DNA of 64,000 nucleotides from Bacteroidales bacterium (GTDB taxonomy: Bacteria; Bacteroidota; Bacteroidia; Bacteroidales; M50B96): positions 1,737-65,736 of the forward strand of contig JAIOYV010000003.1 in the NCBI GenBank assembly GCA_021740905.1, given 5' to 3'. Both the position numbers and the translations under genes were made by a program. Positions 3,570-55,174 of the stretch are shown piece by piece (the first letter of the stretch is position 1; each line of letters opens with the position of its first letter). The notes beneath the pieces are model-generated. The model was not told the DNA's origin. It did not search any database and saw only the letters and a list, made by a program, of their open reading frames with translations.

Positions 3570-5201
3570 TTAATCAACCTTCACCAACTTTTCAGTTTTC
3601 ACAATTCCTCCAGATCTTACATTGACAAAATAAATTCCACAGGGGTATTTTGAAATATCAAATTGATTTTTCGTACCTTTTATGCTTTCCAAAAGAATAG
3701 CCTTTCCATACAAATTGGTTATCTGTACAGTCCCGGTTGTTGCCCTCTCAAATTGCAAAGTAAATTCCCCCGATGTTGGATTTGGGTAGATATTTATTTT
3801 GTTATGGACGATTGAATTGTCTGAAATACTATTCGTACAGGTAGTTGTGAAATATACATTGGAGCTATTTGCGGTATCCAGGTATGTAACACTTGCTGGA
3901 GGAAAAGGCATTGTCCAAACACAGACTTCTGTTAAAGAGGGCATCACGCTCAATTTAATATTCTCTAATAAAGTATTTTGTGAAATGTCCAAATAGCTTA
4001 ATTGATTTGAGTTACCGTATAAATTTTTTAAATTTTGATTATTGGAAACATCTACGTCGGTTAATTGGTTGATATTAAAAAACAAATTAACAAGGCTACT
4101 ACAACTCGAAATATTCAGGTTTGTCAATAAATTATTGTTGCATCTTAAATATTCTAAATTGATATTATTGGATAAATCCAGGCTGGTTAATTGATTAAAA
4201 TTGCAGTCTAGGGTGTGAAGCAAAAAATTAGTAGAAACATCCAAAGTGGTCAATTGATTCTTACCGCACCATATCATTGCTAAATTGCTATTAAGGGAAA
4301 AATCCAGTGCCGATATTTGATTGCCCTCACAATTGAGGGAAGTCAAATTTGGATTAGAGGAAATGTTGAGGCTGGACAACATATTATTAACGCATTCCAG
4401 CTCTGTTAAAATGGTATTGTTTGATACATCCAAAGTGGTCAATTGATTATCACCACAATGTAAATTTGTTAGATTTGTATTGTTTGATACATTTAACACT
4501 GTTAATTGATTCTCGTAACAACTCAGTGTTAATAGGGCGGTATTATTGGAAACATCAAGGATGGTAAGCGAATTAGTGCTACACCACAAATCTGTTAAGG
4601 AAGTATTCGGCGAAATATTTAAACTGGTCAATAGATTATTATAACAATAAAGCTCTGCCAAATTCAGATTACTGGCTACATTTAAACTAGTCAATTGATT
4701 GAAAGCACAAATTAATTCCTGTAAATTCAGATTATTTGAAATTGAAAGAGTACTTATCTGATTATTATGACAATATAATCTTGTTAACAATAAATTGCTT
4801 GAAACATCTAAGCTATTTAATTGATTATTTTGACAAAACAAATTTGTTAAATTCAGATTATTGGAAATATTTAAAGTGGTTAACTGATTGAAACTGCAAT
4901 TAAGTATACTCAAATTGGTGCAATTGGATATATCAAGGCTAGAAAATTGATTATTATAGCAATGCAAGGAGGTCAAATTTATAAAAGATTCTATGCCTGT
5001 CATGTCTGAAATACCTTTATTTTCTACATATAAAAAAGCTACAGCTTCGGCTTCCGCGACACTTATTAGCGAATCTGCATTAACATCAACTCCATCGTCG
5101 ATTAGGGCAGCTAAAAAATTTGCGTCCGGGATAATTACATTCTGGGCATACATCGAAGGAAAAAGAGAGAGAATGAGCAAAAGGGAAAGGAAAGTTTTCA
5201 T
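3570..5201 (-). CDS. Secreted leucine-rich-repeat protein with T9SS C-terminal sorting domain
   Basis: 543 aa with a signal peptide (…FPSMYAQ). It carries 16 consecutive 21-aa repeats of form LTxLxCxxNQLTxLDVSNNxx. The C-terminus (INIYPNPTSGEFTLQF…GIYFVNV…KLVKVD) matches the Por/T9SS CTD pattern. Confidence 0.85.
   Translation of the reverse strand: MKTFLSLLLILSLFPSMYAQNVIIPDANFLAALIDDGVDVNADSLISVAEAEAVAFLYVENKGISDMTGIESFINLTSLHCYNNQFSSLDISNCTNLSILNCSFNQLTTLNISNNLNLTNLFCQNNQLNSLDVSSNLLLTRLYCHNNQISTLSISNNLNLQELICAFNQLTSLNVASNLNLAELYCYNNLLTSLNISPNTSLTDLWCSTNSLTILDVSNNTALLTLSCYENQLTVLNVSNNTNLTNLHCGDNQLTTLDVSNNTILTELECVNNMLSSLNISSNPNLTSLNCEGNQISALDFSLNSNLAMIWCGKNQLTTLDVSTNFLLHTLDCNFNQLTSLDLSNNINLEYLRCNNNLLTNLNISSCSSLVNLFFNINQLTDVDVSNNQNLKNLYGNSNQLSYLDISQNTLLENIKLSVMPSLTEVCVWTMPFPPASVTYLDTANSSNVYFTTTCTNSISDNSIVHNKINIYPNPTSGEFTLQFERATTGTVQITNLYGKAILLESIKGTKNQFDISKYPCGIYFVNVRSGGIVKTEKLVKVD
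3969..4976 (-). repeat. Coding tandem array of 16 x 63-nt LRR units
   Basis: Residues ~76-411 of the LRR protein show strict 21-aa periodicity. Coordinates were derived from residue numbering. Confidence 0.7.
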
Positions 5202-5320: not shown

Positions 5321-7717
5321 ATGAAAAAGATTCTACTAATTTTATCTACCATCCTTCTTTCTCCCTGCTTTCTAAATGCCCAAACCGTTTTAGTCGATTT
5401 TGGTGCTGCAACATCTAATAATGTGTTCGGTATGCCGGGTTGGAACAACTTGTTGCTGAGTAACAACATGGTATATCTATCTCCTGGTGGGAGTGGGGTT
5501 TCCCCCCAGAGTAACCTGGACGAGTTCACCGATTATATGGGTGTTTCGGGGCCTAGTGCTTTTAATTTTCAGGTCAACCACCGGGTAGTGGTTACTTGGT
5601 ATAATAACTCGAACCAAACTTTCAATTTTTCGGCACGGATAAGTTTCTCTGATACCGATTATCCTGACTCGGGCACTGCAACCGGAAACTGGTTCACCAT
5701 GCGATCGTTCACTAATTACCAGCATACTTATTCGGAGGCATTGCCCTATTCTTTAATAAAAACTGTTTTCAATATTGTTGACCAGGGTGTTCATGCTTGT
5801 ACTGGGAACCATAATTCGGTAAATGTGAACCTGCACATCGAATGGTTCGACAGTTCGTTGAAGCCCAACCTTATTTGCGACAAAATTGAATTGTACGACG
5901 ATGCCGACACATCTGCCCCTGCGCAACCCACAAACCTTCAGGCAGTGGTTTTGTCTGATTCTAAAATTGCCCTAAGCTGGAATGTTCCAACCGACAATGT
6001 TGCCGTTACCGAATACTATGTGTACAAAAACGGGGAAATGGAATCGTACTCCCGCATCAATGCTGATACAATCTATTTTCTTGAACCGGCCACATCCTAC
6101 GCATTTCAGGTAACAGCCTTAGACAATGTGCTAAACGAAAGTGCACCGTCCCAATCAATAACTGTAAGCACAATGGCTTTTCAGGGCGACACATCGTTGA
6201 TAAACCCATCGGTGTTCGAATATGCCGGAGCATTCCGGTTTCCCGACAACACCAATTGGGGTGCCGATGCCCTGGCATACAATCCCAACGGTGACGGGGG
6301 CCTAACAGGGAGCGGCTCTTCCGACGGACATCCGGGATCGTTGTTTACATCGAACATAAATACACCTTCCGATGCATACATTGGTGAATTTAATATCCCA
6401 GGCCCGGTCATTCCAACACCTCTGGCTGTCGATTCTTTGCCTCAGGCAACCCAACTTCAGGGATTCTCCAACATCCGTCCTGCCAATATAAATAATTATC
6501 CTTATGTGGATGTTTGGGTAAACGATATAGCCTGGCTTCCTGCACAGGGAGCACAGACCAATGCGAAATTGTACAGTGCCTGGGGGTATTATTACCAACT
6601 AATGGGCGAGACTAAATATCCTGCCCTGAGTTGGTGCGATGCCCAAAACCTGGCAGGCTCTACAAAACAGGGTGGCTGGTATCTCGGCAGCCCCACCGGC
6701 TGGCCCGAACCCGCTTATTGCAACGACTACCTTTTTCCGGTACCTCAACTTTGGGCCGATGCAAACACCAATGGCAGGTCGCTTTTAAATGGCCGCTACC
6801 GCGAAGGGGGATTGAGTGGGCTGGGACCCACTTTGTATGCCATTGCACCCTGGCAATCGGGGAACCCACCAGCTGTTGGTGAAACACTTTCGTACACCAC
6901 ATTGCTGGAATACGGCCCGGTGCTAAATTCGGTTGATGATTATTATTACCCCAATGCTATTAATGACTACAACCATGCCGATTACTGGAAAGATGCTGTG
7001 TGGCTGAAGGATAATAGCAAAAATGCAGTTGCCATTGTCGGTTTAAAAGGGTTAGGGGTAAATTACTATGGTTACAAAGGGGAACAGATGCGTCACGAAT
7101 GGGTAATTGCCGATCTCCCATACCCGGAATTTTATGCTACCGATCCAAACGGAAAAGGATGGCAAGCCGGAAGGATGGCTCCGATAATGGTCCTTTACAA
7201 GCCACAGGATTTGGCCGATGTTGCAGCAGGCGTTCAAAATTCGTACGACATCCAACCTTATGCGGCCATGAGGTTCGACCCCGGTATTTTCTATTCCGAT
7301 CATCCTGAACTAAGGAGTGCAGCTTTCGACCGGGAGAATGAAATCCTTTACATCACTGAATTTTGCGAGGAGTACGATGGCCGTGCTGTGGTTCATGTGT
7401 GGACTACAAGTTCGGTTATTGTTGATATTGAGAATTACCATTCTCCTGAAAGGCGATTTATAGTCTATCCGAATCCATCAAATGGGTATTTTCAGATTGA
7501 AATTGCCACTGGTCTACCAGGTAAATTCAGAATAGAGATATATAACACCCTTGGGAAAAATGTTTGTTCAGGCTTTCGGGAAAAGGAAGCTTGTAGTCAA
7601 ATTTCATTGTATCCATCAGAGAAACTAATGGCTGGTGTTTATTACCTGCAGGTTTGGGGCTGCAATGGAAAACATAATGAATTAATAGGGAGTAGAAGGA
7701 TAGTTGTGGTGGATTGA
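5321..7717 (+). CDS. Secreted protein with one fibronectin-III domain and a T9SS C-terminal sorting domain; function unknown
   Basis: 798 aa with a signal peptide (…CFLNAQ). It has an Fn3-like segment (PTNLQAVVLSDSKIALSWNVPTDNVAVTEYYVYKNG…FQVTALD). The C-terminus is FIVYPNPSNGYFQIEI…GVYYLQV…RIVVVD. Confidence 0.8.
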   Translation: MKKILLILSTILLSPCFLNAQTVLVDFGAATSNNVFGMPGWNNLLLSNNMVYLSPGGSGVSPQSNLDEFTDYMGVSGPSAFNFQVNHRVVVTWYNNSNQTFNFSARISFSDTDYPDSGTATGNWFTMRSFTNYQHTYSEALPYSLIKTVFNIVDQGVHACTGNHNSVNVNLHIEWFDSSLKPNLICDKIELYDDADTSAPAQPTNLQAVVLSDSKIALSWNVPTDNVAVTEYYVYKNGEMESYSRINADTIYFLEPATSYAFQVTALDNVLNESAPSQSITVSTMAFQGDTSLINPSVFEYAGAFRFPDNTNWGADALAYNPNGDGGLTGSGSSDGHPGSLFTSNINTPSDAYIGEFNIPGPVIPTPLAVDSLPQATQLQGFSNIRPANINNYPYVDVWVNDIAWLPAQGAQTNAKLYSAWGYYYQLMGETKYPALSWCDAQNLAGSTKQGGWYLGSPTGWPEPAYCNDYLFPVPQLWADANTNGRSLLNGRYREGGLSGLGPTLYAIAPWQSGNPPAVGETLSYTTLLEYGPVLNSVDDYYYPNAINDYNHADYWKDAVWLKDNSKNAVAIVGLKGLGVNYYGYKGEQMRHEWVIADLPYPEFYATDPNGKGWQAGRMAPIMVLYKPQDLADVAAGVQNSYDIQPYAAMRFDPGIFYSDHPELRSAAFDRENEILYITEFCEEYDGRAVVHVWTTSSVIVDIENYHSPERRFIVYPNPSNGYFQIEIATGLPGKFRIEIYNTLGKNVCSGFREKEACSQISLYPSEKLMAGVYYLQVWGCNGKHNELIGSRRIVVVD

Positions 7718-7720
7718 AAA

Positions 7721-7750
7721 AAAGCCTGCCCTTGAATCAGGGCAGGCTTT
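7721..7750. terminator. Bidirectional hairpin terminator between convergent genes
   Basis: 11-bp perfect stem aaagcctgccc/gggcaggcttt with an 8-nt loop. It is flanked by A-run and T-run sequence. Confidence 0.6.
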
Positions 7751-7774
7751 CATTTATCATTCTGAATAATCCGT

Positions 7775-8650
7775 TTAAAAATTATATGACAAACCTATGC
7801 CCAGCACTTCTTTGAATTGAATTTCGGGAGACAGTTTTGTTGGGTCATCACCAAATAAAATATCATTGTCGTAGATAAGTGTGGTCGATAAATTAGCCGA
7901 CAAGTACTTGTTGATCTTCATCGTAATCAGCACTTCCCAGTTTACATCAAGGTTTTGAGGCTTGTCGAGATAGTTGGAGAATAAATCGATCTTTGTGCTG
8001 AAATTCACATTTTCCATGATATCTTTTTTGTAGGCTATTTTCATATAGGCCCCAAATTCTGTCCGTATCTTTTCACCAGCATCTAAGCCATAGGTAGTGG
8101 AAAATAGTGTATCATTGACAAAAGTTACCTTTCCGCTAAGGGGTGAAATGAACATCGAAAAGTTATCGTTTGGTTTATAGTCCATACCCAAAGCAAGGTT
8201 CAAGTAGGCCGGTACCATAAAGTTCGAAATTTCCTCATTGGGGACATCGGGATCGTTGGAATATTTGTAACCGGTAGTCATTTGGGTCTTAAAATTGGCC
8301 AGTGCGCTATAGTACCAATTTTTGCTGGCGTTGCGGCCATACTTCGAGGCAAGCTCGATTTTATCGTCAGTTTTTCGCCAGCCTTGATCACCTTGTTTCA
8401 TGGTGCCATAACCAAAACCCAGGGTATTGTCCCAGGTCGAATTGCCTTTTTTATAATTGGCAAAAAGGTTCAGCATCAAATTTCCTGATATTGAATTTTC
8501 TCCACCGGCTGCCCAATTACTGAGTGAAACCTGTGAGAAGGCAAGTGAGCCTGCTCCTCCTGTTTTCCAAGTTTTCGCTGGTTCTTCTTGAGCGTTCAGG
8601 CTTAAAGCCATTGTTGCAAGTATTGCTATTGCATAAATAGTTTTCTTCAT
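7775..8650 (-). CDS. DUF3078-like outer-membrane beta-barrel protein
   Basis: 291 aa with a signal peptide. SLSNWAAGGENS motif, alternating beta-strand pattern, and a C-terminal …GIGLSYNF aromatic end. Confidence 0.65.
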   Translation of the reverse strand: MKKTIYAIAILATMALSLNAQEEPAKTWKTGGAGSLAFSQVSLSNWAAGGENSISGNLMLNLFANYKKGNSTWDNTLGFGYGTMKQGDQGWRKTDDKIELASKYGRNASKNWYYSALANFKTQMTTGYKYSNDPDVPNEEISNFMVPAYLNLALGMDYKPNDNFSMFISPLSGKVTFVNDTLFSTTYGLDAGEKIRTEFGAYMKIAYKKDIMENVNFSTKIDLFSNYLDKPQNLDVNWEVLITMKINKYLSANLSTTLIYDNDILFGDDPTKLSPEIQFKEVLGIGLSYNF

Positions 8651-8686
8651 ATTTGAATTTATTAATTAATATTCTTTTTTAAGTTG

Positions 8687-10179: not shown

Positions 10180-12666
10180 TTATTTTATTACTTTGAAATT
10201 TTTCGAGAGTTTGTTGTTGTTAGTTTGCAGGGTGTAAAGATAGTTTCCCGCAGGGTAGGGACTGGTATTTAGATTGTATTTGTGTACTCCGGCATCAAAG
10301 TGGCCGGAAGCAATCTCTTCTATAAACTCGCCAAGAGCATTGAAAACTCGTAAGCTTATATCTGTTTCACCAGCAAGGAGAAATGAGATTTCGGTTCCCG
10401 ACTTGCAGGGATTGGGTGTATTTTGAAATAATTCTGTACTCATTGTTTGGGCCAATTGTCCCGCCACGGCAAGTCCGTCGTTTTTATAGTACTGATTGCC
10501 CTCGAACCAGGAACGTACCTGATAATTAGTTTCCTTTGCTTTTGCATGGTCAAATAGCCTGATCTCATATTCTTCGTTAGGCAGCATGCCTTCCTTTTGA
10601 TAAAATGTATAGGGGTCGTCGCCCCAAATAGCAATGGCCATATTGCCACCATTATATACAGCCGATCCAACCAGTTTTCCACCGGTCGTAAAAATACCGA
10701 TCTCGTCGCCAACAGAAGGAAGCGAGGGCCATGCAGATTCAGGGATCGCAAGAGTCATATTGCAACCTGTCGGGGTTATTTTTTCGTACTCAACAGGAGC
10801 ATATTCCGAATGGAAACCGAGTGATTTTTGACTTGGCGAGTTGGCTGGATACGTAATTATAATAGGACTGTTTGTATTTATCTGATACCCTTTGCCGGGT
10901 ATCATATTACCAATCCCGTTTACTCCCCAATAGGGCCAGTACACAGCGCCTTGGGAATCTTTTACAATAATTATGTTGGCGACAACCGGGCTTAACATGG
11001 TTATAATGCTTGCGGGCGATTGCCTCAAGTACCCAATAATACTCCAGCCCAGTGGTACGCTCACAGGAGTAAGTTCGGGGATAATAGCAATTCCTGTTAC
11101 ATCGAGGGTTGATGCGTTTGCCATATTGACTTGATAGCCTTCGCCAATGACCATATCGTTTATCATATCGACAAATGGGGGCCAATAAACCAGGCCTGCA
11201 CCGTTTTTTATTATTATGATATTGTTAAAAACAGGTAAAAAAACAGCTTCTATATCAGGATCGGACGGGATTACGTAGGTCGAAAAAATTCCCCATCCCT
11301 GATTAAGAGTCAAGGTTTGTGTTTCTTGGCTGTAAGCAACCAATGCAGAAATCCCACTTAATCCATTGGTAACATAGTATGCTGTATTTGAAAATCCGGT
11401 GGTCTCGTATGTTGCGGTAGCAAAATATTCCAGGCCATTAGATGCGTCCCAAACCATAAAAGTGAATTCTTCGCCTGATGCAAAACCATCTTTGTCACTG
11501 GTGCCGGAATCGTCGCCCCAGGCTGCAAGAAAACTGGTTAGCCCAGTGTAAACCATAAAGCCTCCACATTCATAAGTGCCGTTGTCGTCGTAAAAAACGC
11601 CTAAGTAATCGCCCACTTCAATAGGGGTGCCATTTATGGTGATGGCTGCAAAATTAGGGATAAGGATAGAATGGTTGATCCCGGTATTTGTAAATACCCA
11701 GCCGGGTGAGGAAGTTGGTGGTAAAACTTCAAAACCACTCCACTTAGAAACAATCCCATCCGTGGGGTTTTCAACCTTTACATCGTACATGCCGGTTGGC
11801 GCATTAAAAGGGACACTCAGATTGATGCTTAACTGGCTGGGACTTTGAACGGTAACATTTGTTCCGGTCATGATGGTTTGGCTAGCTTGCTCGAACCATA
11901 CCGTTTCGCTGCCCTGTGTAAAATGGGTATATTGTCCGCTAATGGCGACACTCAGCGATTCGCCTTGTTCTGCATTGTCGGGGTTTACAAGAATAATTTC
12001 GGGAGCATTGGAAGATGTCCCGTTAATCTCCACATCGTCTACCATCCAGGCATATTCCCACGAACCAACATAGTGAAAACGTATCCAAACAGCCGGTTCG
12101 TTATCGGCCAAGGCTGAGATATCGACAAGAACCGTGTTGCTTACAGTTGACAAATAGGGAACAGAAGCATTTACTTCTATGTCGGTCCAGGTTGTGCCAT
12201 TGGTACTTACTCCTATATAGCAATGTTCTGATTGATACCTGCGATACAATTGCTGAAAACTCAATTCGAGGTTACTGCCCAAAGAGAGGTTGATTGCGGA
12301 AGAAGTATAAATGCTTGCATCCTGACTACCTCCGGATGAACCTATATAATCGGAATCGTAAAGAGCAAATCCATTGGCAGCCGTAGTGGACGGAATTATA
12401 CCCATCGGAAATGAATAGGTGCCAGCCGGGCCAGTGGTTGTGATTACCCAGTTCTGCGCATTTCCCAGAGAGTTGCTTATGGTCCAATCGGCACCGACCG
12501 AAAAATCATTGCTCCAAAAAAGACTAGTGACAGCCTTGGTCGATTTTTGACTGGAAAAAACAATTTCATTATTAAAAATATAACTTGAGGGCACAGTAGA
12601 TTTAATCTGGGCTACCCCGACACTTAAAATAAATAAGAAAAGTAGAAACGAATAGATTTTTTTCAT
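10180..12666 (-). CDS. Large secreted T9SS cargo protein; N-terminal jelly-roll (MAM/choice-of-anchor-like, tentative) plus an unnamed duplicated module; paralog of 59387..61018
   Basis: 828 aa with a signal peptide. The C-terminus FQNTPNPCKSGTEISF…GNYLYTLQT…NFKVIK is a T9SS CTD. The internal part is colinear with the 570-aa protein at 59387..61018. Confidence 0.8.
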   Translation of the reverse strand: MKKIYSFLLFLFILSVGVAQIKSTVPSSYIFNNEIVFSSQKSTKAVTSLFWSNDFSVGADWTISNSLGNAQNWVITTTGPAGTYSFPMGIIPSTTAANGFALYDSDYIGSSGGSQDASIYTSSAINLSLGSNLELSFQQLYRRYQSEHCYIGVSTNGTTWTDIEVNASVPYLSTVSNTVLVDISALADNEPAVWIRFHYVGSWEYAWMVDDVEINGTSSNAPEIILVNPDNAEQGESLSVAISGQYTHFTQGSETVWFEQASQTIMTGTNVTVQSPSQLSINLSVPFNAPTGMYDVKVENPTDGIVSKWSGFEVLPPTSSPGWVFTNTGINHSILIPNFAAITINGTPIEVGDYLGVFYDDNGTYECGGFMVYTGLTSFLAAWGDDSGTSDKDGFASGEEFTFMVWDASNGLEYFATATYETTGFSNTAYYVTNGLSGISALVAYSQETQTLTLNQGWGIFSTYVIPSDPDIEAVFLPVFNNIIIIKNGAGLVYWPPFVDMINDMVIGEGYQVNMANASTLDVTGIAIIPELTPVSVPLGWSIIGYLRQSPASIITMLSPVVANIIIVKDSQGAVYWPYWGVNGIGNMIPGKGYQINTNSPIIITYPANSPSQKSLGFHSEYAPVEYEKITPTGCNMTLAIPESAWPSLPSVGDEIGIFTTGGKLVGSAVYNGGNMAIAIWGDDPYTFYQKEGMLPNEEYEIRLFDHAKAKETNYQVRSWFEGNQYYKNDGLAVAGQLAQTMSTELFQNTPNPCKSGTEISFLLAGETDISLRVFNALGEFIEEIASGHFDAGVHKYNLNTSPYPAGNYLYTLQTNNNKLSKNFKVIK

Positions 12667-48436: not shown

Positions 48437-49888
48437 ATGAAAGTAAATCTTTTTTCTATTACAAATGCTGTATTGGTCTTAACTTTGTTCTTTGCAGTAA
48501 GTTGCAAAAAAGATGATAGGAACAAAAACCCAACCTGTGAAATTGCCTCACCCGCAGCCAACCAAGTGTTTGCCAAAGGAATTGTGATTCCCATTATAGT
48601 TAATGCCACTGATGATGATGGAACCATAGAGGAAGTTCAGTACCAGGTAGATAATGTGGGGGTTGGCTCGGCTACCAGTTTCCCCTACGAATTCAATTGG
48701 AACTCAGGAGAAGGAACATTAGGTAGCCATACCATCATAGCCACCAGCAAGGACAACAACGGAGGTTCTGCATCTGATGAGGTGACCATAACCCTTATTG
48801 AAGGAAGTGCCCCGTTAGCCGGATTTTCTGCCACACCCCAAACCGGGATCATCCCAATAAATGTGAAGTTTACCGATGAGTCGCAGAATAATCCGGTAAG
48901 TTGGCTATGGGATTTTGGTGATGGCTCAGCTTCAACCGAACAGAATCCTGTTCATACATATTCAAATGCGGGTAAATACACTGTTGTTCTTACCGTAGTA
49001 AATTCTTATGGGACCGATTCTGAAACGAAAACGGAATTTATTGAAGCCACTACAGGCATCCCTGTGGTAAACTTTTCTGCCAGCGATAGTATTATTATTG
49101 TTGGGGAAAGTGTATCTTTTACTGATTTGTCAACCGATTCTCCCATCACTTGGGACTGGGATTTTGGCGATGGAAACTCTAGCTTTGAGCAGAATCCAAC
49201 CCATGTTTATGATACAGTTGGAATTTATACCGTAATGTTAACAGCCAACAATTCCTATGGTAGTGGCACAGAAACCAAAACCAATTTCATTACTGTAGAA
49301 AGTACGGATGGTCATCCCTGCCCGGAAATCCCAACATTTGAATACGAAGGGCAAACCTACAACACTGTAAAAATTGGCGACCAGTGTTGGATGAAAGAAA
49401 ACCTGAATTACGAAACTAGTAGTGGCAGCTATTGTTATGATGATGATCCTGTTAATTGTGAAACCTACGGGAGGCTCTATATCTGGAATGCAATTATGAA
49501 TGGAGAAAGTGGTAGTAATGATGTACCCAGTGGTGTACTCGGTATCTGTCCGTCTGGTTGGCATATTCCAAGTGATGCAGAATGGGATGTAATTGTCAAT
49601 TATCTGGGAGGAAATAATGTTGCAGGAGGGAAAATGAAAGAAGTCGGATATGAGCATTGGGAGAATCCGAATGAGGATGCAGACAATTCAAGTGGGTTTA
49701 CAGCACTGCCAGGGGGCGAGAAATATGGCACATTCAACGGGTTGGGCAGCTACGGCCGTTGGTGGTCGTCTACACAGTTTTCCCCCACACAAGCCTGGTA
49801 TCGAACCATGTCTGGCATTTGGGGGGGCGTGTACCAGGATTACACCAACAAGTTGAAAGGGTTCTCATTGCGTTGTCTCAAAGACTAG
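48437..49888 (+). CDS. Lipoprotein with an Ig-like domain, two PKD domains and a C-terminal Fibrobacter-succinogenes-major-paralogous (FISUMP, TIGR02145-like) domain
   Basis: 483 aa. Lipobox FFAVSC-KKDD. Two PKD repeats (WLWDFGDGSAS…NPVHTY; WDWDFGDGNSS…NPTHVY). The C-terminus reads YNTVKIGDQCWMKENL…GRLY…CPSGWHIPSDAEW…GFSLRCLKD. Confidence 0.85.
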   Translation: MKVNLFSITNAVLVLTLFFAVSCKKDDRNKNPTCEIASPAANQVFAKGIVIPIIVNATDDDGTIEEVQYQVDNVGVGSATSFPYEFNWNSGEGTLGSHTIIATSKDNNGGSASDEVTITLIEGSAPLAGFSATPQTGIIPINVKFTDESQNNPVSWLWDFGDGSASTEQNPVHTYSNAGKYTVVLTVVNSYGTDSETKTEFIEATTGIPVVNFSASDSIIIVGESVSFTDLSTDSPITWDWDFGDGNSSFEQNPTHVYDTVGIYTVMLTANNSYGSGTETKTNFITVESTDGHPCPEIPTFEYEGQTYNTVKIGDQCWMKENLNYETSSGSYCYDDDPVNCETYGRLYIWNAIMNGESGSNDVPSGVLGICPSGWHIPSDAEWDVIVNYLGGNNVAGGKMKEVGYEHWENPNEDADNSSGFTALPGGEKYGTFNGLGSYGRWWSSTQFSPTQAWYRTMSGIWGGVYQDYTNKLKGFSLRCLKD

Positions 49889-50148
49889 TCTATTATGATT
49901 GAAGAAAGTCCAACAAAATCCAAAATGCTATGCAATTATACTTTCGTCAGATGATGGGAAAAAACCGGAATCACTAAACACCATTAGAATCCATCAAGCA
50001 TTGCCACTAACGGTGATGGTAAGGTATCGTGCGGGAGTACGAGGCGATTTCCTATCAGTTTACACCGACTTTTATAGGAGCTGCAAACGATCGAAAACCA
50101 CTGAAACCCGTTCGCACTATACCATGTATTGTGCCTTGTTGTATATTT

Positions 50149-50222
50149 TTCTGTTCGTGCGGTTGGACAGACACACTCTTTGACAAGCTTTGGTTTAAGC
50201 GTTGGCTGGTAGGGCTTGGCAA
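50149..50222. repeat. Left copy of the imperfect direct repeat flanking the XRE/PHP-ATPase/AlbA_2 cassette
   Basis: It shares ttctgtt, gacaagct, ttggttt, agcgttggct and ggcaa, in the same order with small gaps, with 54315..54383. Confidence 0.5.
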
Positions 50223-50257
50223 TGAGTGAGGCTGAGAAGGGCTGGCATAGTGACTCG

Positions 50258-51430
50258 TTATTTCTTTTCTGGTCTTGGAATTATGACTTTGAATTGTTCG
50301 CCTTCAACATCGTTGATAAGTTCGATATTTGGTTGAGCTTCCAATGCTCGGTTAATACCAGAACCAAACCCACGATAAATCATCAACTTTGAACAATAGG
50401 ACACCAAAAGGTTGTTACGTACAACTGCATGACCCATTTTTATATTTTCTATGGTAAGGTTATTTGGTAGAGAACCAGGACTCACAATTTCAATTCGATT
50501 ATCAAATATCATTATCCTTATGGGTGAATTTTTGGAATAGTCTCTATGTACCAAAGCATTCTGCACAAATTCTTCTAATGCGATTTGTGAAATTTCCAAT
50601 TTGCCCACAGAATTAAAATTCTGACCTGCCTGAATATGAAGTAAATTTGAGGTGAAAAACCTCATAGTTTCCTCAAAGATTTCAGGAATGCATCCCTCTA
50701 TATCTTGACTGCTTCTGTATTCCGTTCCTCCAATACTGTTACCAAAAAATGAAATTGCCTTTACGCAAAACGCAGGTCTATACTTCTGTGGATTATTTGC
50801 AAAAAATAAAAGACCACCTAAAGTAAGACGACCCTCTTTAATAATATTCAAATTATGTAGAAGATTTTCGGTAATATCAATACTTTCATCTGATTCTCTT
50901 TTTTGAACGGCTTTTACATATTTTTCGACTTTGGAAACTTCAACATCATTAACAGTTGTTTGTGGAATAATCATTTCATCCAAATACAAGATTCCACTTT
51001 GTTGAAACAATCGTATCTGCTCATTATTGTCTGTTAGCCGTCTCTTATCAGAACCTTGCTTTATCCAGATGGCACCATTCTTATCTTTGTAAGGCTTAGC
51101 GGTCCCTTCAGAAATTTCAACTATCAGTACTTTTTTATCATCTTCGGAAGAAGAAACACCAACAACTTCTGTATAAATAAAAATCTGTGGTTTTACCATA
51201 TCATTGGCAATGTTTGCTAACAATTGATTGTAGTCTTGAATCTGTTTTATACTAAGTCCTGTAATCTTTCCGGTTTTATCTTCAACACCAAAAAATAGTT
51301 TACCTCCTCTGGAATTAGAAAAGGCTATCATTTCGGCAGCAATAGAATCGTTGCTGTCAATCTCTCTTTTAAACTGTACCTTACTTGTTTCGCCAGTGCT
51401 AATTATATCCAGTAATTCTAATGCGTTCAT
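50258..51430 (-). CDS. AlbA_2 (Schlafen-like, divergent-AAA) + HATPase_c_4 domain protein
   Basis: 390 aa. N-terminus: GETSKVQFKREI…IAFSNSRGGKLFFGVEDKTGKITGL. C-terminus: VQNALVHRDYS…RIEIVSPGSLP…YRGFGSGINR. Its start overlaps the upstream stop (ATGA). Confidence 0.85.
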   Translation of the reverse strand: MNALELLDIISTGETSKVQFKREIDSNDSIAAEMIAFSNSRGGKLFFGVEDKTGKITGLSIKQIQDYNQLLANIANDMVKPQIFIYTEVVGVSSSEDDKKVLIVEISEGTAKPYKDKNGAIWIKQGSDKRRLTDNNEQIRLFQQSGILYLDEMIIPQTTVNDVEVSKVEKYVKAVQKRESDESIDITENLLHNLNIIKEGRLTLGGLLFFANNPQKYRPAFCVKAISFFGNSIGGTEYRSSQDIEGCIPEIFEETMRFFTSNLLHIQAGQNFNSVGKLEISQIALEEFVQNALVHRDYSKNSPIRIMIFDNRIEIVSPGSLPNNLTIENIKMGHAVVRNNLLVSYCSKLMIYRGFGSGINRALEAQPNIELINDVEGEQFKVIIPRPEKK

Positions 51431-54042
51431 ATTGATTTTATTTTTTCAATGTTCCAAATGCTGTAAATATTTTTCCTGCGATTAAATGCCTCGTCTCCAC
51501 CTTCCATTATGTCAACAATAAACCGTTGTGTCTGGTGATTATCAATAGTGCCTGAATGTACGGTGATTTTCTTGTCATCAAAGCTGCACGAAACAACTTT
51601 TTCACTATCACCAAGCACAGGGATATTGGCATTATGGGTAGCAAAGACAAATTGCATAGTACCCTTTATTTCCTTTAGCTCTTTTATTACTTCATCATAA
51701 ATGGTTTGATTATCTAAATCATCTTCGGGTTGGTCAATAATCAATACATCATTTTCCCTTTGAGCCAATAAGAAAAGAATTAATGCTGATGCTCGTTGCC
51801 CTAGAGAATGTTTGTCTAATGATTTTCCATTGTATTGAATGACTATTTTATTTTCTACTTTAAAAGTGAGCAAGTCTTCCAGACTTTCAGAAAACCTTCG
51901 TTTAAAATCAACTACATGATTTTCATTCAATATGTCATCCAATTTACTGCTGTCTCTGTATATCTGAATGAAGTCTTTGTAGTTAGCTTCAATCTCCTGA
52001 TAAGCTGTTTCCCGAATGTTTGTACCCCTAAAAATTTGCTTCATCTTGTCAGTAAGTTTATCCCTCCTGCCTTTGAATTCAACATCAATTGAAATTTTAC
52101 TTTCTGCTTCATTAATCCTTTTTACCTCTTTATTGAGAACATTATATTCTTCAAGCCAAAGGTTATCAAGTTCAGTAAGACGTTCTAGTAAATTGGTTTG
52201 CAAATCGCTTCTTCTCTTTTCAGATTTTTCTATTTCCTTTAATTTTAAAAGGGCAGTTTCAATTAGCCTGTTAAGATTCAGAAAATTATCGGGATTAATG
52301 GTGTCTGTGTTTATTTCCCGTTTAATCTTTGCAAAATCTTCCTTTAAACCTTCTTTTTTGGTATTTATTTTTGCAATTACCTCTTTTAATTTCTGTTGAC
52401 TGAGTATAGAATTCTTTTGGATCGTTTTTAGTTTTTCAAACTCAATTTTTAGTTCTTGAATGATTGTTTTTGCTTCTTCAAATAATTCTTTATTAATTTC
52501 TGAACCAGTAATTTCTTGTTGAAAAAAATAATCATGATTAGAAATTACAGATGCCAATTCGTTTAAATAACCTCTGACAGTTGATTCATTTTGAGCCAGT
52601 TTTGAAATATCAGAATCAAAAAGTGTTTGTTGTTTCAATTTATCTTCAATACCTTTTTCTTTAAAGTAATTAAGTTGATGCTTCGAGTTTTGTATTTGAG
52701 CATCTGTTTCTTTTTTTAAGTCCTTTAAATTTTGGAGTTTTTTTAGTTCTGATATTATGTTTTCAACCTCTCTTTTCTTTTGCTCAATTTTAACTTGAAC
52801 TGCTTTTAATCTTGTTCCAATTAATCGTTTAATCAAATCACCTTCAAAATCTTTTCCCTTATTCGACAGGTCTTTTTGTCCAAAGTAAATTGGGGAATTA
52901 AAGCCTGTAGCATCAATAGAAATTCCAGGTTGAAGTAGGTTGTTTTTATAAATATCTTCTTTTTGACCATACAGTTTTTCTATCCTATATTCTTCATTTT
53001 GCTTGTTGACTATGGTAACTATAGCTTTTCCTCCGCTACCCATTGAACGGGTTACTAATGAATTTTTATAATCCGGGTCAGCGGCATTAATAGGCAGCGA
53101 GATTCCAAGAACATAGCGTAAAACTTCCAATAACGATGATTTTCCACTTCCCCTGATTCCGATTAAATTGTTGAGTTCAGGTGAAAAATCAATTCTTGTT
53201 CCTTCTAATAAACCACCTTCAAATGCAATTGATTTGATGTAAGCATTTTTTATGTCAGGTTTGTCTTTCGGTGAAACTCTGTATTCACTATCCGTCAATG
53301 CAAAAGTTAGTGCTTCAAAATTAAAATCCCCTATTTTTATATAAGTAACCTTGCCTTTTCCTATAGCATCAATGCCTCCATGAGCATTATCTGAACCTTC
53401 AATACAAGCGATTTTACTCTTTCTATTCAGCCACAAACAAAGTTTGTTGTAATTTTCAAGATTTGCACTTTTCTGAACAGCCAAGACCTTATTGAATGAT
53501 TCTTGCTTCACAAAAACCTCTTGAGTTCTACCTCTCAACTCCGTAAATAATCCATTGCTGTCGTCAATGTGAGCCAAGACAATAAAGTAATCGTATCCGA
53601 TTTTGTCTAATGCTTCTACAGTTTCTTTTAGATTGAAGTTTGAATTTGGGTAATTAGGCTTGTCATAGCTAGAAATGCCATAAAAAGCATTCTCCAAAAA
53701 TTTATTGATATTGTCTGTTTCACCCTGATACCATTTATCATCGAAAACAACTAAAATGTGAATTCCTTCTTTTAATGAGAATTCAACTCCTGCAAATAAT
53801 CCAATACCTTCTTTTATTGCTTTCTTTCTTAGGGCAACAAATTCATTTTTATCAAATTTATTATGATTGGTAATGACTCCAGCATTGATATTTTGTTCTT
53901 TAAGTTTTTCGATATAAAGTCGGCAGAAATCATTCTCGTTACCTGTATACGAAAATTCTTTATCTGCCTTTGTATGCAAATGGAAATCAGCCCGAAGCCA
54001 AGTCGCACCATTTTTAAAAATATTTATAGTTTCGCTTTCCAT
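51427..54042 (-). CDS. PHP-domain phosphoesterase fused to an SMC/Rad50-like ABC ATPase with a long coiled coil (Ppl-like)
   Basis: 871 aa. PHP motifs ADFHLHT, ITNHN, VLAHIDD and GSDNAHG. Walker A GIRGSGKSS, then ~300 aa of coiled coil. Signature-like SLGQRAS, Walker B VLIIDQPEDDLD, and H-loop FATHN. Confidence 0.85.
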   Translation of the reverse strand: MESETINIFKNGATWLRADFHLHTKADKEFSYTGNENDFCRLYIEKLKEQNINAGVITNHNKFDKNEFVALRKKAIKEGIGLFAGVEFSLKEGIHILVVFDDKWYQGETDNINKFLENAFYGISSYDKPNYPNSNFNLKETVEALDKIGYDYFIVLAHIDDSNGLFTELRGRTQEVFVKQESFNKVLAVQKSANLENYNKLCLWLNRKSKIACIEGSDNAHGGIDAIGKGKVTYIKIGDFNFEALTFALTDSEYRVSPKDKPDIKNAYIKSIAFEGGLLEGTRIDFSPELNNLIGIRGSGKSSLLEVLRYVLGISLPINAADPDYKNSLVTRSMGSGGKAIVTIVNKQNEEYRIEKLYGQKEDIYKNNLLQPGISIDATGFNSPIYFGQKDLSNKGKDFEGDLIKRLIGTRLKAVQVKIEQKKREVENIISELKKLQNLKDLKKETDAQIQNSKHQLNYFKEKGIEDKLKQQTLFDSDISKLAQNESTVRGYLNELASVISNHDYFFQQEITGSEINKELFEEAKTIIQELKIEFEKLKTIQKNSILSQQKLKEVIAKINTKKEGLKEDFAKIKREINTDTINPDNFLNLNRLIETALLKLKEIEKSEKRRSDLQTNLLERLTELDNLWLEEYNVLNKEVKRINEAESKISIDVEFKGRRDKLTDKMKQIFRGTNIRETAYQEIEANYKDFIQIYRDSSKLDDILNENHVVDFKRRFSESLEDLLTFKVENKIVIQYNGKSLDKHSLGQRASALILFLLAQRENDVLIIDQPEDDLDNQTIYDEVIKELKEIKGTMQFVFATHNANIPVLGDSEKVVSCSFDDKKITVHSGTIDNHQTQRFIVDIMEGGDEAFNRRKNIYSIWNIEKIKSI

Positions 54043-54239
54043 TATTTCGCTTTTCTATCAGTTAATAATTCTTTGACTTCAACATCAAGGATTTCAGCAA
54101 TCTTGTACAAATCTTCTAAACTTGGTTGCCGTCTGTTTTGGGCATACGAATTTACCATATTGTAACTCTTGCCTAATTGCTCAGCCAACCATTTTTGTTT
54201 AATTCCCTTCTGTTCTAAAACGTCTTTTATCCGGTTCAT
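54042..54239 (-). CDS. XRE-family helix-turn-helix transcriptional regulator
   Basis: 65 aa. IKQKWLAEQLGKSYNMVNSYAQNRRQPSLEDLYKIAEIL is a Cro/C1-type HTH. Its stop overlaps the next start (TAATG). Confidence 0.8.
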   Translation of the reverse strand: MNRIKDVLEQKGIKQKWLAEQLGKSYNMVNSYAQNRRQPSLEDLYKIAEILDVEVKELLTDRKAK

Positions 54240-54262
54240 TCTTGAACTTTTTTATATTTTAC

Positions 54263-54270
54263 AAAAGTAA
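54263..54270 (-). promoter_or_regulatory. TAnnTTTG -7 box for the cassette operon
   Basis: The minus strand reads tacttttg, 24-31 nt upstream of the XRE ATG at 54239. Confidence 0.4.
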
Positions 54271-54314
54271 GAATAAATATTTTATATCTCACATAATGAG
54301 TATTTAAATCATCA

Positions 54315-54383
54315 TTCTGTTTGGGTGCAGTAGGAAAGGACAAGCTCTTTTGGTTTTTCAGCGTTGGCTTTGCGTGTCGGCAA
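54315..54383. repeat. Right copy of the imperfect direct repeat flanking the cassette
   Basis: See 50149..50222. The same ordered blocks occur here: ttctgtt … gacaagct … ttggttt … agcgttggct … ggcaa. Confidence 0.5.
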
Positions 54384-54547
54384 AAACCTAATGTTATTGA
54401 TGGAATAAACTAAGTAAATAGTAAGCACATTTACAACAAACGAATTTGAAGTTTAAATTGGGTTTATTAAGAAAAGGGAATTAAAATTCCGCAAGATTGG
54501 AATACTCACCCTCATTTTTCCGCCTTATTTTTACATCGAATTTAAAA

Positions 54548-55174
54548 ATGACTAGCATGGAAAAAATAGATTTTAAAAAGGAATTGAAGCAAGTATACAA
54601 AGCTTCTGACAAGAAAATTGAAGTGGTCGAAATCCCGGAATTGAAATACCTGGTGGTAAGTGGCACAGGATATCCTGGCGACAATCCTTTGTTTATGGAG
54701 GCTATTGAGATTTTGTATGGGGTGGCTTACACCCTCAAATTTATGCTGAAGGAGGAAAGCCTCCAGCCCAAAGGCTACTGTGATTTTGTGATCCCACCCC
54801 TCGAAGCCACCTGGTGCATGGGCGACGAAAAGTTCGATGCGAACCAACCCGAAAAATGGCAGTGGGACATGATGATCATGCAGCCCGGATGGATAAGTGA
54901 GGAGTTGATCGAAAAAGCCAAACAGGAAATCCGGAAAAAGAAAATGCAACCCATATTGGACAAGTTGCAGATGAAAGCCATTAAGGCACACAAGGCTGTG
55001 AAGACTTTACACATTGGCCCCTACGACGAGGTGAGCAAGGTGTACGAAAAACTCGAAGCTTACATCAACGAAAACGATTTGACTTGTTCTGGTCCATCAC
55101 GTGAAATTTACCTGAGTGATCCGCGACGCACTGCTCCCGAAAAATTGAAGACGGTGGTGATGTTACCAGGATAG
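54548..55174 (+). CDS. GyrI-like small-molecule-binding domain protein
   Basis: The track ORF starts at TTG 54497; ATG 54548 (or 54557, MEKIDFKKELKQVYKA) is preferred. …PELKYLVVSGTGYP… and …KTLHIGPYDEV…EIYLSDPRRT are GyrI-like/SOUL-type hallmarks. Confidence 0.8.
   Translation: MTSMEKIDFKKELKQVYKASDKKIEVVEIPELKYLVVSGTGYPGDNPLFMEAIEILYGVAYTLKFMLKEESLQPKGYCDFVIPPLEATWCMGDEKFDANQPEKWQWDMMIMQPGWISEELIEKAKQEIRKKKMQPILDKLQMKAIKAHKAVKTLHIGPYDEVSKVYEKLEAYINENDLTCSGPSREIYLSDPRRTAPEKLKTVVMLPG

Follow-up and report, generated by a model that had tools for sequence, protein, structure and literature searches.

The 64,000-nucleotide stretch of Bacteroidales DNA analyzed here (contig JAIOYV010000003.1, positions 1,737 to 65,736; hereafter the window) carries on its minus strand a compact three-gene cassette for a small XRE-type helix-turn-helix (HTH) protein, a PHP phosphoesterase fused to a Rad50/SMC-like ATPase, and a Schlafen-like protein with a GHKL-type ATPase domain. 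An earlier note on this DNA had regarded the combination as undescribed, but it is already known and named as trlR-trlF-trlG, the "temperature restriction locus" (TRL) of Photorhabdus (PMC7554251). The reading favored here, to which a probability of roughly 60% is assigned, is that the TRL module is a mobile, HTH-autoregulated defense of the abortive-infection type against phages or plasmids that is linked to restriction-modification (R-M). A defense role gains plausibility because the trlF-trlG pair is repeatedly embedded inside R-M operons of both type III and type I. The window itself yields a modest result, namely one further, partly decayed, stand-alone copy of a named family. What is new relative to the literature found is the R-M embedding, the bounded mosaic cassette, an invariant glutamine in TrlG, and the existence of solo as well as paired TrlF. 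The three open reading frames (ORFs) are as follows (aa, amino acids).

54042..54239, minus strand: XRE-type HTH regulator gene, 65 aa; HTH_3 match at 2.7e-12
51427..54042, minus strand: trlF, 871 aa; PHP phosphoesterase joined to a Rad50/SMC-like ABC ATPase, the latter divided by a long coiled coil
50258..51430, minus strand: trlG, 390 aa; Schlafen-fold domain plus GHKL-type ATPase, a stand-alone "Schlatpase"

The regulator and trlF genes meet at TAATG (54044-54040), where stop and start overlap by 1 nt, and trlF and trlG meet at ATGA (51430-51427), with an overlap of 4 nt, as read from the sequence. An independent gene call on a public contig gave the identical three-gene set. The tightly packed arrangement described previously was thus confirmed by both the ORF coordinates and the sequence.

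Relatives of the 871-aa protein were collected from one genome per species, which gave 56 loci with TrlF relatives at 35-95% identity (individual loci are given L numbers below). At 14 of the 56, trlF-trlG lay between the type III genes mod and res, in the order Mod-TrlF-TrlG-Res; mod encoded an N6_N4_Mtase protein of ∼650-690 aa and res a ResIII plus RE_endonuc protein of ∼880 aa. Gaps within these operons ranged from −4 to +11 nt, and the HTH gene, where present, stood ahead of mod. Complete operons of the HTH-Mod-TrlF-TrlG-Res form, in which the pair separates mod and res genes that are normally neighbors, were seen at L003 (4716-13433), L009, L014-L017, L019, L025, L030, L031, L038, and L039. 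Three more loci (L005, L018, and L051) had fragments of mod and/or res only, making 17/56 in all. On the IncC plasmid of Klebsiella pneumoniae AR_0143 the pair was embedded in a type I operon, HTH-HsdR-TrlF-TrlG-HsdS-AAA_13-HsdM, in which all genes overlapped and which stood beside a Tn7-like TnsD gene; PrrC and RloC belong to the AAA_13 family of ATPases.

L141, NZ_CP021709.1, 1749-12619: K. pneumoniae AR_0143 IncC type I operon

Near-identical type I-embedded copies were also present on plasmids of Escherichia coli, Klebsiella, and Proteus. Distant chromosomal copies adjoined HsdS with RadC upstream (L052), an m5C methyltransferase (L049), or an MmeI-like enzyme (L027), and other neighbors of distant copies were a DUF1016 nuclease (L047 and L048) and a TOTE primase-helicase (L029). 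The window copy does not lie in a defense island.

The same arrangement could mean that TrlF and TrlG are accessory R-M subunits that process DNA cut by Res or HsdR, the stand-alone copies being remnants. In favor of such a role are the location of the pair, which sits in overlapping frames between mod and res or hsdR and hsdS, and the mod/res remnants at the stand-alone copies L005, L018, and L051; in addition, a PHP domain joined to a Rad50-like ATPase resembles the end-processing Mre11-Rad50/SbcCD enzymes. It is nevertheless quite improbable that the pair has no more than this function. About two-thirds of the loci, including the window and Photorhabdus, are free of R-M genes yet have both genes intact, with invariant motifs and a regulator of their own. 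Moreover, the use of three different R-M types as partners argues for a self-contained module, and the module is toxic on its own in Photorhabdus.

A full-length TrlG homologue directly followed trlF, mostly with overlap, in 47/47 loci with downstream DNA; the remaining 9 of the 56 ended at a contig edge and lie outside this count. The pairing is obligate in the clade to which the window belongs, and the tight coupling of the 871-aa and 390-aa genes that had been described for the window is accordingly general within that clade. The 56 loci were found in Bacteroidota, Ignavibacteria, Verrucomicrobiota, Chloroflexota, Desulfobacterota, Spirochaetota, Thermotogota, Atribacterota, and a Methanoperedenaceae archaeon. 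Near-identical cassettes (82-95% amino acid identity) were present in metagenome-assembled genomes (MAGs) of Bacteroidales, Ignavibacteria, Verrucomicrobia, Chitinophagales, Paceibacterota, and Atribacterota. At E ≤ 1e-30, the TrlF family comprised 615 clusters at 50% identity.

TrlF-family genes were also found on 233 plasmids, 168 of them conjugative, with TrlG on only 51. TrlF was solo in ∼180 of these 233 plasmid copies, so that the dependence of the 871-aa protein on its Schlafen-like partner, which the earlier note had considered possible, is not universal. On E. coli IncF and Listeria plasmids TrlF stood alone with no space for a second gene (L140, E. coli IncF NZ_MK291500.1, 4992-7613; L138, Listeria pLM6179, 6001-8589). 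The Listeria copy lies ∼2 kb upstream of the heat-resistance gene clpL, probably by coincidence. Solo and paired TrlF proteins were collinear, and no insertion or extension specific to pairing was found when the two were compared. Solo lineages were not mutual closest relatives, and TrlG has probably been lost more than once.

Assignment of the 871-aa protein to TrlF rests on the NCBIfam model NF045780 (TrlF family AAA-like ATPase), which was matched with 538 bits (cut-off 350, E 6.9e-161) over aa 11-860, equivalent to model positions 1-943 of 944. By contrast, the proposal that the protein is a Ppl-like core did not survive: the Ppl model NF042955 gave 178 bits (1.8e-52) against a cut-off of 1000, which refutes orthology. 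The PADLOC Ppl model (PDLC02208) likewise produced a partial match (121 bits, 7.8e-36), the best stretch being C-terminal, and NCBIfam Spaf_1101 scored 198 bits against a cut-off of 475. Ppl, reported by Gao et al. (2020) as an anti-phage protein with PHP and ATPase parts encoded by a single gene, resembles TrlF in that PHP is fused to an ABC/SMC-like ATPase with a coiled coil, and homology extends over model positions 1-617. Unlike Ppl, which is a single-gene system, TrlF of the window's clade always has TrlG. TrlF, Ppl, and Spaf_1101 are sister families.

That the cassette might be a Ppl orthologue beside unrelated genes, or a housekeeping SbcCD-like repair operon, is suggested by the partial Ppl-model matches and by the SMC and Rad50-like ATPase head. 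This is scarcely credible given that the Ppl cut-off was failed, the TrlF cut-off was passed, and the neighbor was kept in 47/47 loci. A housekeeping repair operon in particular was ruled out by the low-GC, mobile, patchily distributed insert and its conserved trlG neighbor. The analysis also corrects the annotation of these proteins, which bear labels such as "histidinol-phosphatase," "RecG," "RNA-binding protein," and Ppl-like. The features of TrlF are listed below.

53248..54042, minus strand: PHP domain, aa 1-265; PF02811 found on the N-terminal 270 aa
53134..53163, minus strand: Walker A IGIRGSGKSS, aa 294-303, with K301; invariant in 46 sequences
52105..52848, minus strand: antiparallel coiled coil, aa 399-646, ∼250 residues, apex at about aa 502-513
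51631..51807, minus strand: ABC signature SLGQR, Walker B IIDQPEDDLD, and H-loop ATHN, aa 746-804; invariant

All peptide motifs quoted previously were found in the protein: ADFHLHT (aa 18-24), ITNHN (aa 57-61), VLAHIDD (aa 155-161), and GSDNAHG (aa 216-222) in the N-terminal part, and GIRGSGKSS (aa 294-302), SLGQRAS (aa 746-752), VLIIDQPEDDLD (aa 766-777), and FATHN (aa 800-804) in the ATPase part. The domain calls made for the three proteins also stood, HTH_3, AlbA_2, HATPase_c_4, and the ABC/SMC ATPase by Pfam and PHP by a scan of the N terminus. In TrlF, Pfam gave AAA_21 at 1.9e-8 (a C-terminal match) and, more weakly, SMC_N, AAA_23, and AAA_15. PHP (PF02811) was not reported by hmmscan of the full-length protein against Pfam, but the isolated N-terminal 270 aa matched with 30.2 bits (gathering cut-off 26.4, E 6.9e-7). 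Among close homologues, a precomputed PF02811 match is present in some and missing in others, an annotation pitfall for coiled-coil-rich proteins. A PDB profile search with TrlF returned SMC and Rad50 heads only.

Across 46 homologues, 112 TrlF residues were invariant. These included the PHP metal ligands D19, H21, H23, H60, E87, H158, and D218, H95 being nearly so, together with the ATPase residues K301, Q389 (Q-loop), S746-R750, D770/E773, and H803. The last canonical PHP histidine, H221 (SDNAH), was kept in the close clade only and gave way to SDC--K or SDNAQ in other clades. Because the catalytic motifs are invariant, the PHP and ATPase activities of TrlF are probably intact. The coiled coil, which varied more than any other part of TrlF (identity 24-31% at the most distant loci), contained no Cys zinc hook.

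TrlG matched SLFN_AlbA_2 (PF04326, 3e-23) over aa 14-132 and HATPase_c_4 (PF13749, 1.7e-14) over aa 302-366, and the GHKL N-box, E287/N291/H295-R-D-Y, was invariant in TrlG copies. The order of PF04326 then PF13749 with a GHKL N-box is the "Schlatpase" architecture, to which TrlG is assigned on these profile matches. The predicted structure had an overall pLDDT of 66.8, with ∼80-89 in the N-terminal domain and a poor GHKL part, and matches to the N-terminal fold alone were used. The best Foldseek matches were 3lmm (1e-14), the Schlafens SLFN14/11/13/5/12, and the SAMD9 tRNase domain (E for SLFN14, SLFN11, and SLFN13, 2e-6 to 5e-5); TrlG has the Schlafen C-lobe fold. The middle of TrlG (aa 136-280) was, with the TrlF coiled coil, among the most variable parts of the cassette.

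51368..51391, minus strand: equivalent of the Schlafen active site in TrlG, E14-TSKV-Q19-F-K21, with Gln at the second catalytic acid

In Schlafen RNases of prokaryotes and humans, activity requires E-x4-(D/E)-x-K together with a third acid (PMC13056530; 10.64898/2026.05.29.728809). That catalytic signature is absent from TrlG, in which E-x4-Q-x-K was found in 46/46 aligned copies and in three proteobacterial plasmid proteins. Q19 corresponds in the alignment to E211 of human SLFN14, which is mutated in the PDB entry 9jr9 ("schlafen14-E211A"). The third acid, D51, is only nearly invariant, being replaced by N or T-P in L021, L025, and L052. Because the second acid is missing, Schlafen-type nuclease activity cannot be assumed for the 390-aa protein. 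TrlG may be either a nuclease-dead binder or sensor, or an enzyme with a rearranged site, in which case the invariant E33 is a candidate replacement acid. Active PD-(D/E)xK nucleases with Q-x-K exist, for example TnsA.

The only TRL operon with a recorded phenotype is that of Photorhabdus laumondii DJC, which stops the bacteria from growing at 36 °C (Hapeshi et al. 2020; bioRxiv 10.1101/2020.06.02.129163 = PMC7554251). There, trlR encodes a 79-aa putative regulator, trlF was annotated as a "histidinol phosphatase," and TrlG, misannotated as recG, has AlbA_2 at aa 14-128 and HATPase_c_4 at aa 298-365 (PMC7554251). The window cassette shares the gene order, nearly the same TrlG domain positions, and a sporadic, horizontally transferred distribution. 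It differs in its regulator, a 65-aa XRE HTH_3 protein versus the 79-aa TrlR, in its host, a Bacteroidales MAG, and in TrlF, which is ∼40% identical to the proteobacterial copies; the window copy is known from sequence alone. The R-M link, the mosaicism, and the Gln at the Schlafen site are absent from the Photorhabdus paper. No later paper on the TRL operon was found in a literature search, and, besides the TRL paper, none linking a PHP-ATPase with a Schlafen protein, although an earlier notice in a 2020 classification of ABC ATPases is possible.

Some 30 independent heat-tolerant suppressors in Photorhabdus all mapped to trlG and none to trlF, and deletion of the whole operon was viable and harmless (PMC7554251). 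A sequestration model is suggested by the requirement of TrlG for toxicity, by the failure to recover any trlF mutants despite the 2.2-fold larger size of trlF, by the viability of the operon deletion, and by the fact that many plasmids tolerate TrlF without TrlG. TrlF would keep TrlG inactive, and loss of TrlF would free TrlG with lethal effect. A trigger would similarly release TrlG, which might then assemble via its GHKL ATPase and halt growth, either as a binder of RNA or tRNA or as a nuclease that cleaves it at an atypical active site. TrlF may act as a Rad50-like dimer in which the ATPase heads and the coiled coil detect DNA, such as DNA ends or a failing R-M complex, and its PHP domain might be able to cut nucleic acid. 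The trigger might be DNA ends, an R-M enzyme that is blocked, or a phage protein, and heat might mimic it by destabilizing the TrlF-TrlG complex. The HTH protein would hold expression low and self-limited, as the controller proteins of mobile R-M operons do.

Precedents exist for several of these steps. In the SLFN-pAgo system, ATP-driven tetramerization via GHKL switches on tRNA cleavage by the Schlafen domain (10.64898/2026.05.29.728809). PrrC is kept silent by the type I R-M enzyme to which it is linked until a phage anti-restriction peptide activates it, and RloC is a Rad50-like ATPase-nuclease activated by DNA breaks (PMC2610378, PMC3458546, PMC3874168). These anticodon nucleases resemble TrlFG in placing an ABC-type ATPase and a nucleic acid-targeting module inside an R-M operon, and they offer the closest analogy for how the module may work. 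However, their nuclease domains are of the HEPN type and unrelated in sequence, TrlF is without a zinc hook, and TrlFG consists of two proteins that are often R-M-free. The specific proposal that the TRL module guards R-M by abortive infection on the PrrC principle, with TrlF monitoring DNA or the R-M complex and sequestering a Gln-bearing TrlG, is advanced only as a tentative possibility.

The growth arrest invites other explanations. The authors of the TRL study noted patchy presence in Vibrio, Pseudomonas, and others and proposed a physiological role rather than phage defense (PMC7554251), in which the operon would serve as an adaptive thermosensor, stopping replication when the temperature is high or in stationary phase. 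Temperature restriction is indeed the sole experimental phenotype, and transcription rises on temperature up-shift (PMC7554251). Cassettes at 82-95% identity across phyla, carriage on plasmids of many genera and in R-M operons, a sporadic distribution, and the decay of some copies are a poor fit to a host-specific circuit, and a dedicated thermosensor is considered very improbable.

A selfish addiction module, in which TrlFG would stabilize its carrier element or R-M operon by post-segregational arrest in the manner of a toxin-antitoxin (TA) system and have no direct anti-phage role, seems doubtful. It would account for the TrlG-dependent arrest and the failure to recover trlF mutants, for carriage on conjugative plasmids and on Tn7-like and Tn3/IS91-flanked segments near VapBC, MazEF, and RelE loci, and for the toxin genes of the ParE and HicA families immediately upstream at L030 and L038. 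On the other hand, simple TA pairs differ from these large, mosaic, enzyme-rich proteins, chromosomal stand-alone copies occur in housekeeping contexts, solo TrlF is widespread, and deletion of the operon is cost-free in Photorhabdus. Addiction and defense are, in any case, not mutually exclusive.

Several observations count against an R-M-linked defense. In the window no known defense gene lay within a few genes of the cassette and no similarity to Mod or Res was detected anywhere (best tblastn E, 1.7), and the non-R-M neighbors at other loci were heterogeneous and mostly housekeeping. Solo TrlF on ∼180 plasmids shows that TrlF is not merely an inhibitor of TrlG, while Q19 and the non-invariant third acid argue against a conventional Schlafen RNase effector. 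Covariation of TrlF segments with TrlG was flat (r 0.5-0.7), so that no docking region could be inferred, and the AlphaFold model of TrlF, built from 38 sequences at 82-95% identity, had a pLDDT of 57 with only the coiled coil confident, a quality too low for use. The literature search turned up no phage or plasmid challenge of a TRL operon, temperature restriction being the sole recorded phenotype, and Schlafen-HisKinase proteins tested alone gave no protection in one panel (PMC13056530).

TrlG, in which the Schlafen C-lobe fold is followed by a PF13749 GHKL ATPase, resembles the prokaryotic Schlafen effectors and Schlatpase proteins SLFN-pAgo RzAgo (10.64898/2026.05.29.728809), pSlfn-HisKinase (PMC13056530), and Cash (PMC13462974), and the PADLOC SLFN-pAgo model matched TrlG aa 27-346. 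Those effectors have E-x4-(D/E)-x-K and cleave tRNA, whereas TrlG has Gln, is unfused to a sensor, and is genetically locked to TrlF. Lamassu (LmuB/LmuA), PARIS (AriA/AriB, PMC11464382), and Gabija also combine a coiled-coil ABC ATPase with a separate effector governed by oligomeric state, but scores are at the superfamily level and none has a counterpart to the Schlafen/GHKL effector or the fused PHP domain. Weak PADLOC matches in the TrlF ATPase were to LmuB (1.2e-7), AriA (3.4e-6), and mad3 (5.4e-12). Membership in PARIS (AriA), Lamassu (LmuB), or MADS (mad3) was rejected, the matches being weak and partial and the cognate partner gene missing; no AriB-, LmuA-, or LmuC-type neighbor was present among the window ORFs.

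Fusion of SLFN with GHKL is the commonest prokaryotic Schlafen architecture, and Schlafen-GHKL proteins are the most abundant prokaryotic Schlafens. If the tentative proposal of R-M guarding on the PrrC principle is correct, TrlF would be the first natural partner for stand-alone Schlafen-HisKinase ("Schlatpase") proteins, which could explain why such proteins failed to protect when tested alone, and temperature restriction in Photorhabdus would be autoimmunity of a phage-defense system. The R-M embedding also frames the questions of whether TrlFG backs up or guards restriction and whether TrlG is an atypical effector or a nuclease-dead sensor.

Comparison of the window cassette with its relatives revealed a mosaic. 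Nucleotide identity of 93% to L001-type cassettes ended at 51368, near codon 20 of trlG, which marks a recombination edge; the L001 and window proteins were 94% identical in TrlF and 55% in TrlG. The window TrlG was instead 76-80% identical to those of L009, L010, L013, L017, L024, L027, L032, L033, and L051, whose TrlF proteins were 54-80% identical. At least two exchangeable versions of the PHP domain (57-59% versus ∼90% identity) were carried on near-identical ATPase cores (L022, L014, L023, L024, and L027), two examples of which are given here.

L022 versus window: PHP 58%, ATPase core (aa 271-400) 95%
L014 versus window: PHP 59%, ATPase core (aa 271-400) 97%

These identities indicate that the PHP domain, the coiled coil, and trlG have been swapped independently. 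Elsewhere, trlF and trlG were broken into several ORFs, at L045 (7001-10977, in the complete genome of Algoriphagus halophilus) and at L051 (7412-10669). Such modular exchange and decay are the usual signature of accessory conflict genes.

In the window the GC content was 0.28-0.36 over 50500-54500 versus 0.40-0.50 in the flanks, in agreement with the low GC reported by the earlier note. The flanking genes, likewise described there as functionally unrelated, are of the housekeeping kind and encode acetyl-CoA synthetase (acs), a PKD/Fib_succ_major lipoprotein, a GyrI-like protein, and a MacB-type ABC transporter. The low-GC cassette arrived by horizontal transfer as a bounded unit. The insertion point was left undefined by empty-site comparison, in which the closest metagenome relative of the GyrI-like flanking gene was 53% identical. 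An Rfam search over 49700-54700 gave a sole sub-threshold match, inside trlF, which was taken as chance; it was to a plastid group II intron domain at 51623-51793 on the minus strand (29.6 bits versus a gathering score of 140, E 0.016).

The 65-aa HTH protein occupies the position of TrlR but is probably not its orthologue. It showed zero similarity to the 79-aa HTH_73 protein upstream of trlF on a Yersinia ruckeri plasmid, and its PADLOC matches were to the R-M "Control_protein" (weak, 1.8e-4), capH, and the RmrA N terminus. A homologue of the window protein was found at 24 loci and other XRE or HTH_26 proteins at 6 more, and the regulator of the IncC plasmid operon is an HTH_17 protein. Overall, at least five unrelated HTH families were represented in the regulator slot, which in some cases was empty, so that the XRE regulator highlighted previously is real in the window but is not a conserved partner. 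At L030 and L038 the HTH gene was replaced by a ParE-family (4239-4532) and a HicA-family (4656-4877) toxin gene, respectively, directly upstream of mod-trlF-trlG-res. The window HTH gene resembles those of R-M controller (C) proteins in being a small XRE HTH gene that stands first in a mobile operon behind a conserved, palindrome-bearing promoter and that precedes mod in the five-gene version. It differs in that the HTH gene is swapped for unrelated families in other cassettes, and autoregulation here is only predicted.

54240..54400, minus strand: 5' non-coding region (promoter plus probable operator); blastn and MAFFT against L001, L004, L006, L008, L022, L034, and L045, 81-90% identity
54295..54316, minus strand: imperfect palindrome AATGAtgATTTAAATacTCATT; block kept in all aligned cassettes with this HTH type
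54262..54269, minus strand: −7 box TACTTTTG; matches TAnnTTTG, 22 nt upstream of the HTH ATG
50150..50257, minus strand: 3' terminal element, conserved, with a ∼70-nt imperfect hairpin at 50168-50234

The Bacteroidota (Bacteroides) promoter −7 consensus is TAnnTTTG. A −7 box had been proposed at 54263-54270; the element is present, but one base away, at 54269-54262, and was conserved as TACTTTTG/TACTTTTA in most aligned loci. Scans for sigma-70 promoters and intrinsic terminators gave no excess over expectation. The palindrome at 54295..54316 is inferred to be a candidate operator for an HTH dimer. At the upstream end, homology to other cassettes began near 54394-54400; the ∼45 bp that form the outer edge of the 5' element in other copies were missing from the window, and the same 5' region was found ahead of the HTH gene in the R-M-embedded L003 and L015.

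At the other end, weaker homology to L002, L004, and L008 continued past the 3' element to about 50000. RNAalifold analysis of the 3' hairpin gave 17 pairs, 2 with compensatory change, the conservation being mainly of sequence. In L014, L015, L019, and L051 the 3' element came after res, not trlG. The same 5' and 3' end elements were common to the three-gene and five-gene versions of the cassette, and junction sequences revealed mod and res to be present or absent exactly at ORF boundaries. Taken together, the shared end elements and the clean mod/res boundaries point to one mobile unit in two formats.

One copy of the motif ACACAC-N(1-5)-GCCAA (chance expectation, ∼0.08 matches per 64 kb) lay in the 5' element, ∼130 nt before the start of the HTH gene, and in several loci the hairpin of the 3' element held an inverted pair. 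Sites and their window counterparts are listed below.

L008: end-motif sites at 6665-6679 and 10814-10827
L014: end-motif sites at 8627-8686
L022: end-motif sites at 301-312 and 4490-4548
L045: end-motif sites at 6666-6679 and 10852-10910
Window: corresponding sites at 50168-50234 (hairpin) and 54343-54394, with degenerate motif copies

Possible roles for the motif are recombination, termination, and binding of a regulator. No exact match was present in the window, and this, together with the missing outer ∼45 bp, indicates that the window ends have decayed; the window copy is a stand-alone derivative of the TRL module that lacks mod and res. An apparent terminal inverted repeat, the pair TTGTGCCTCATTGT / ACAAC(G)AAGGCACAA, was no better than shuffled controls and was rejected. 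An imperfect direct repeat of ∼40 bp stood out in both the window and L008.

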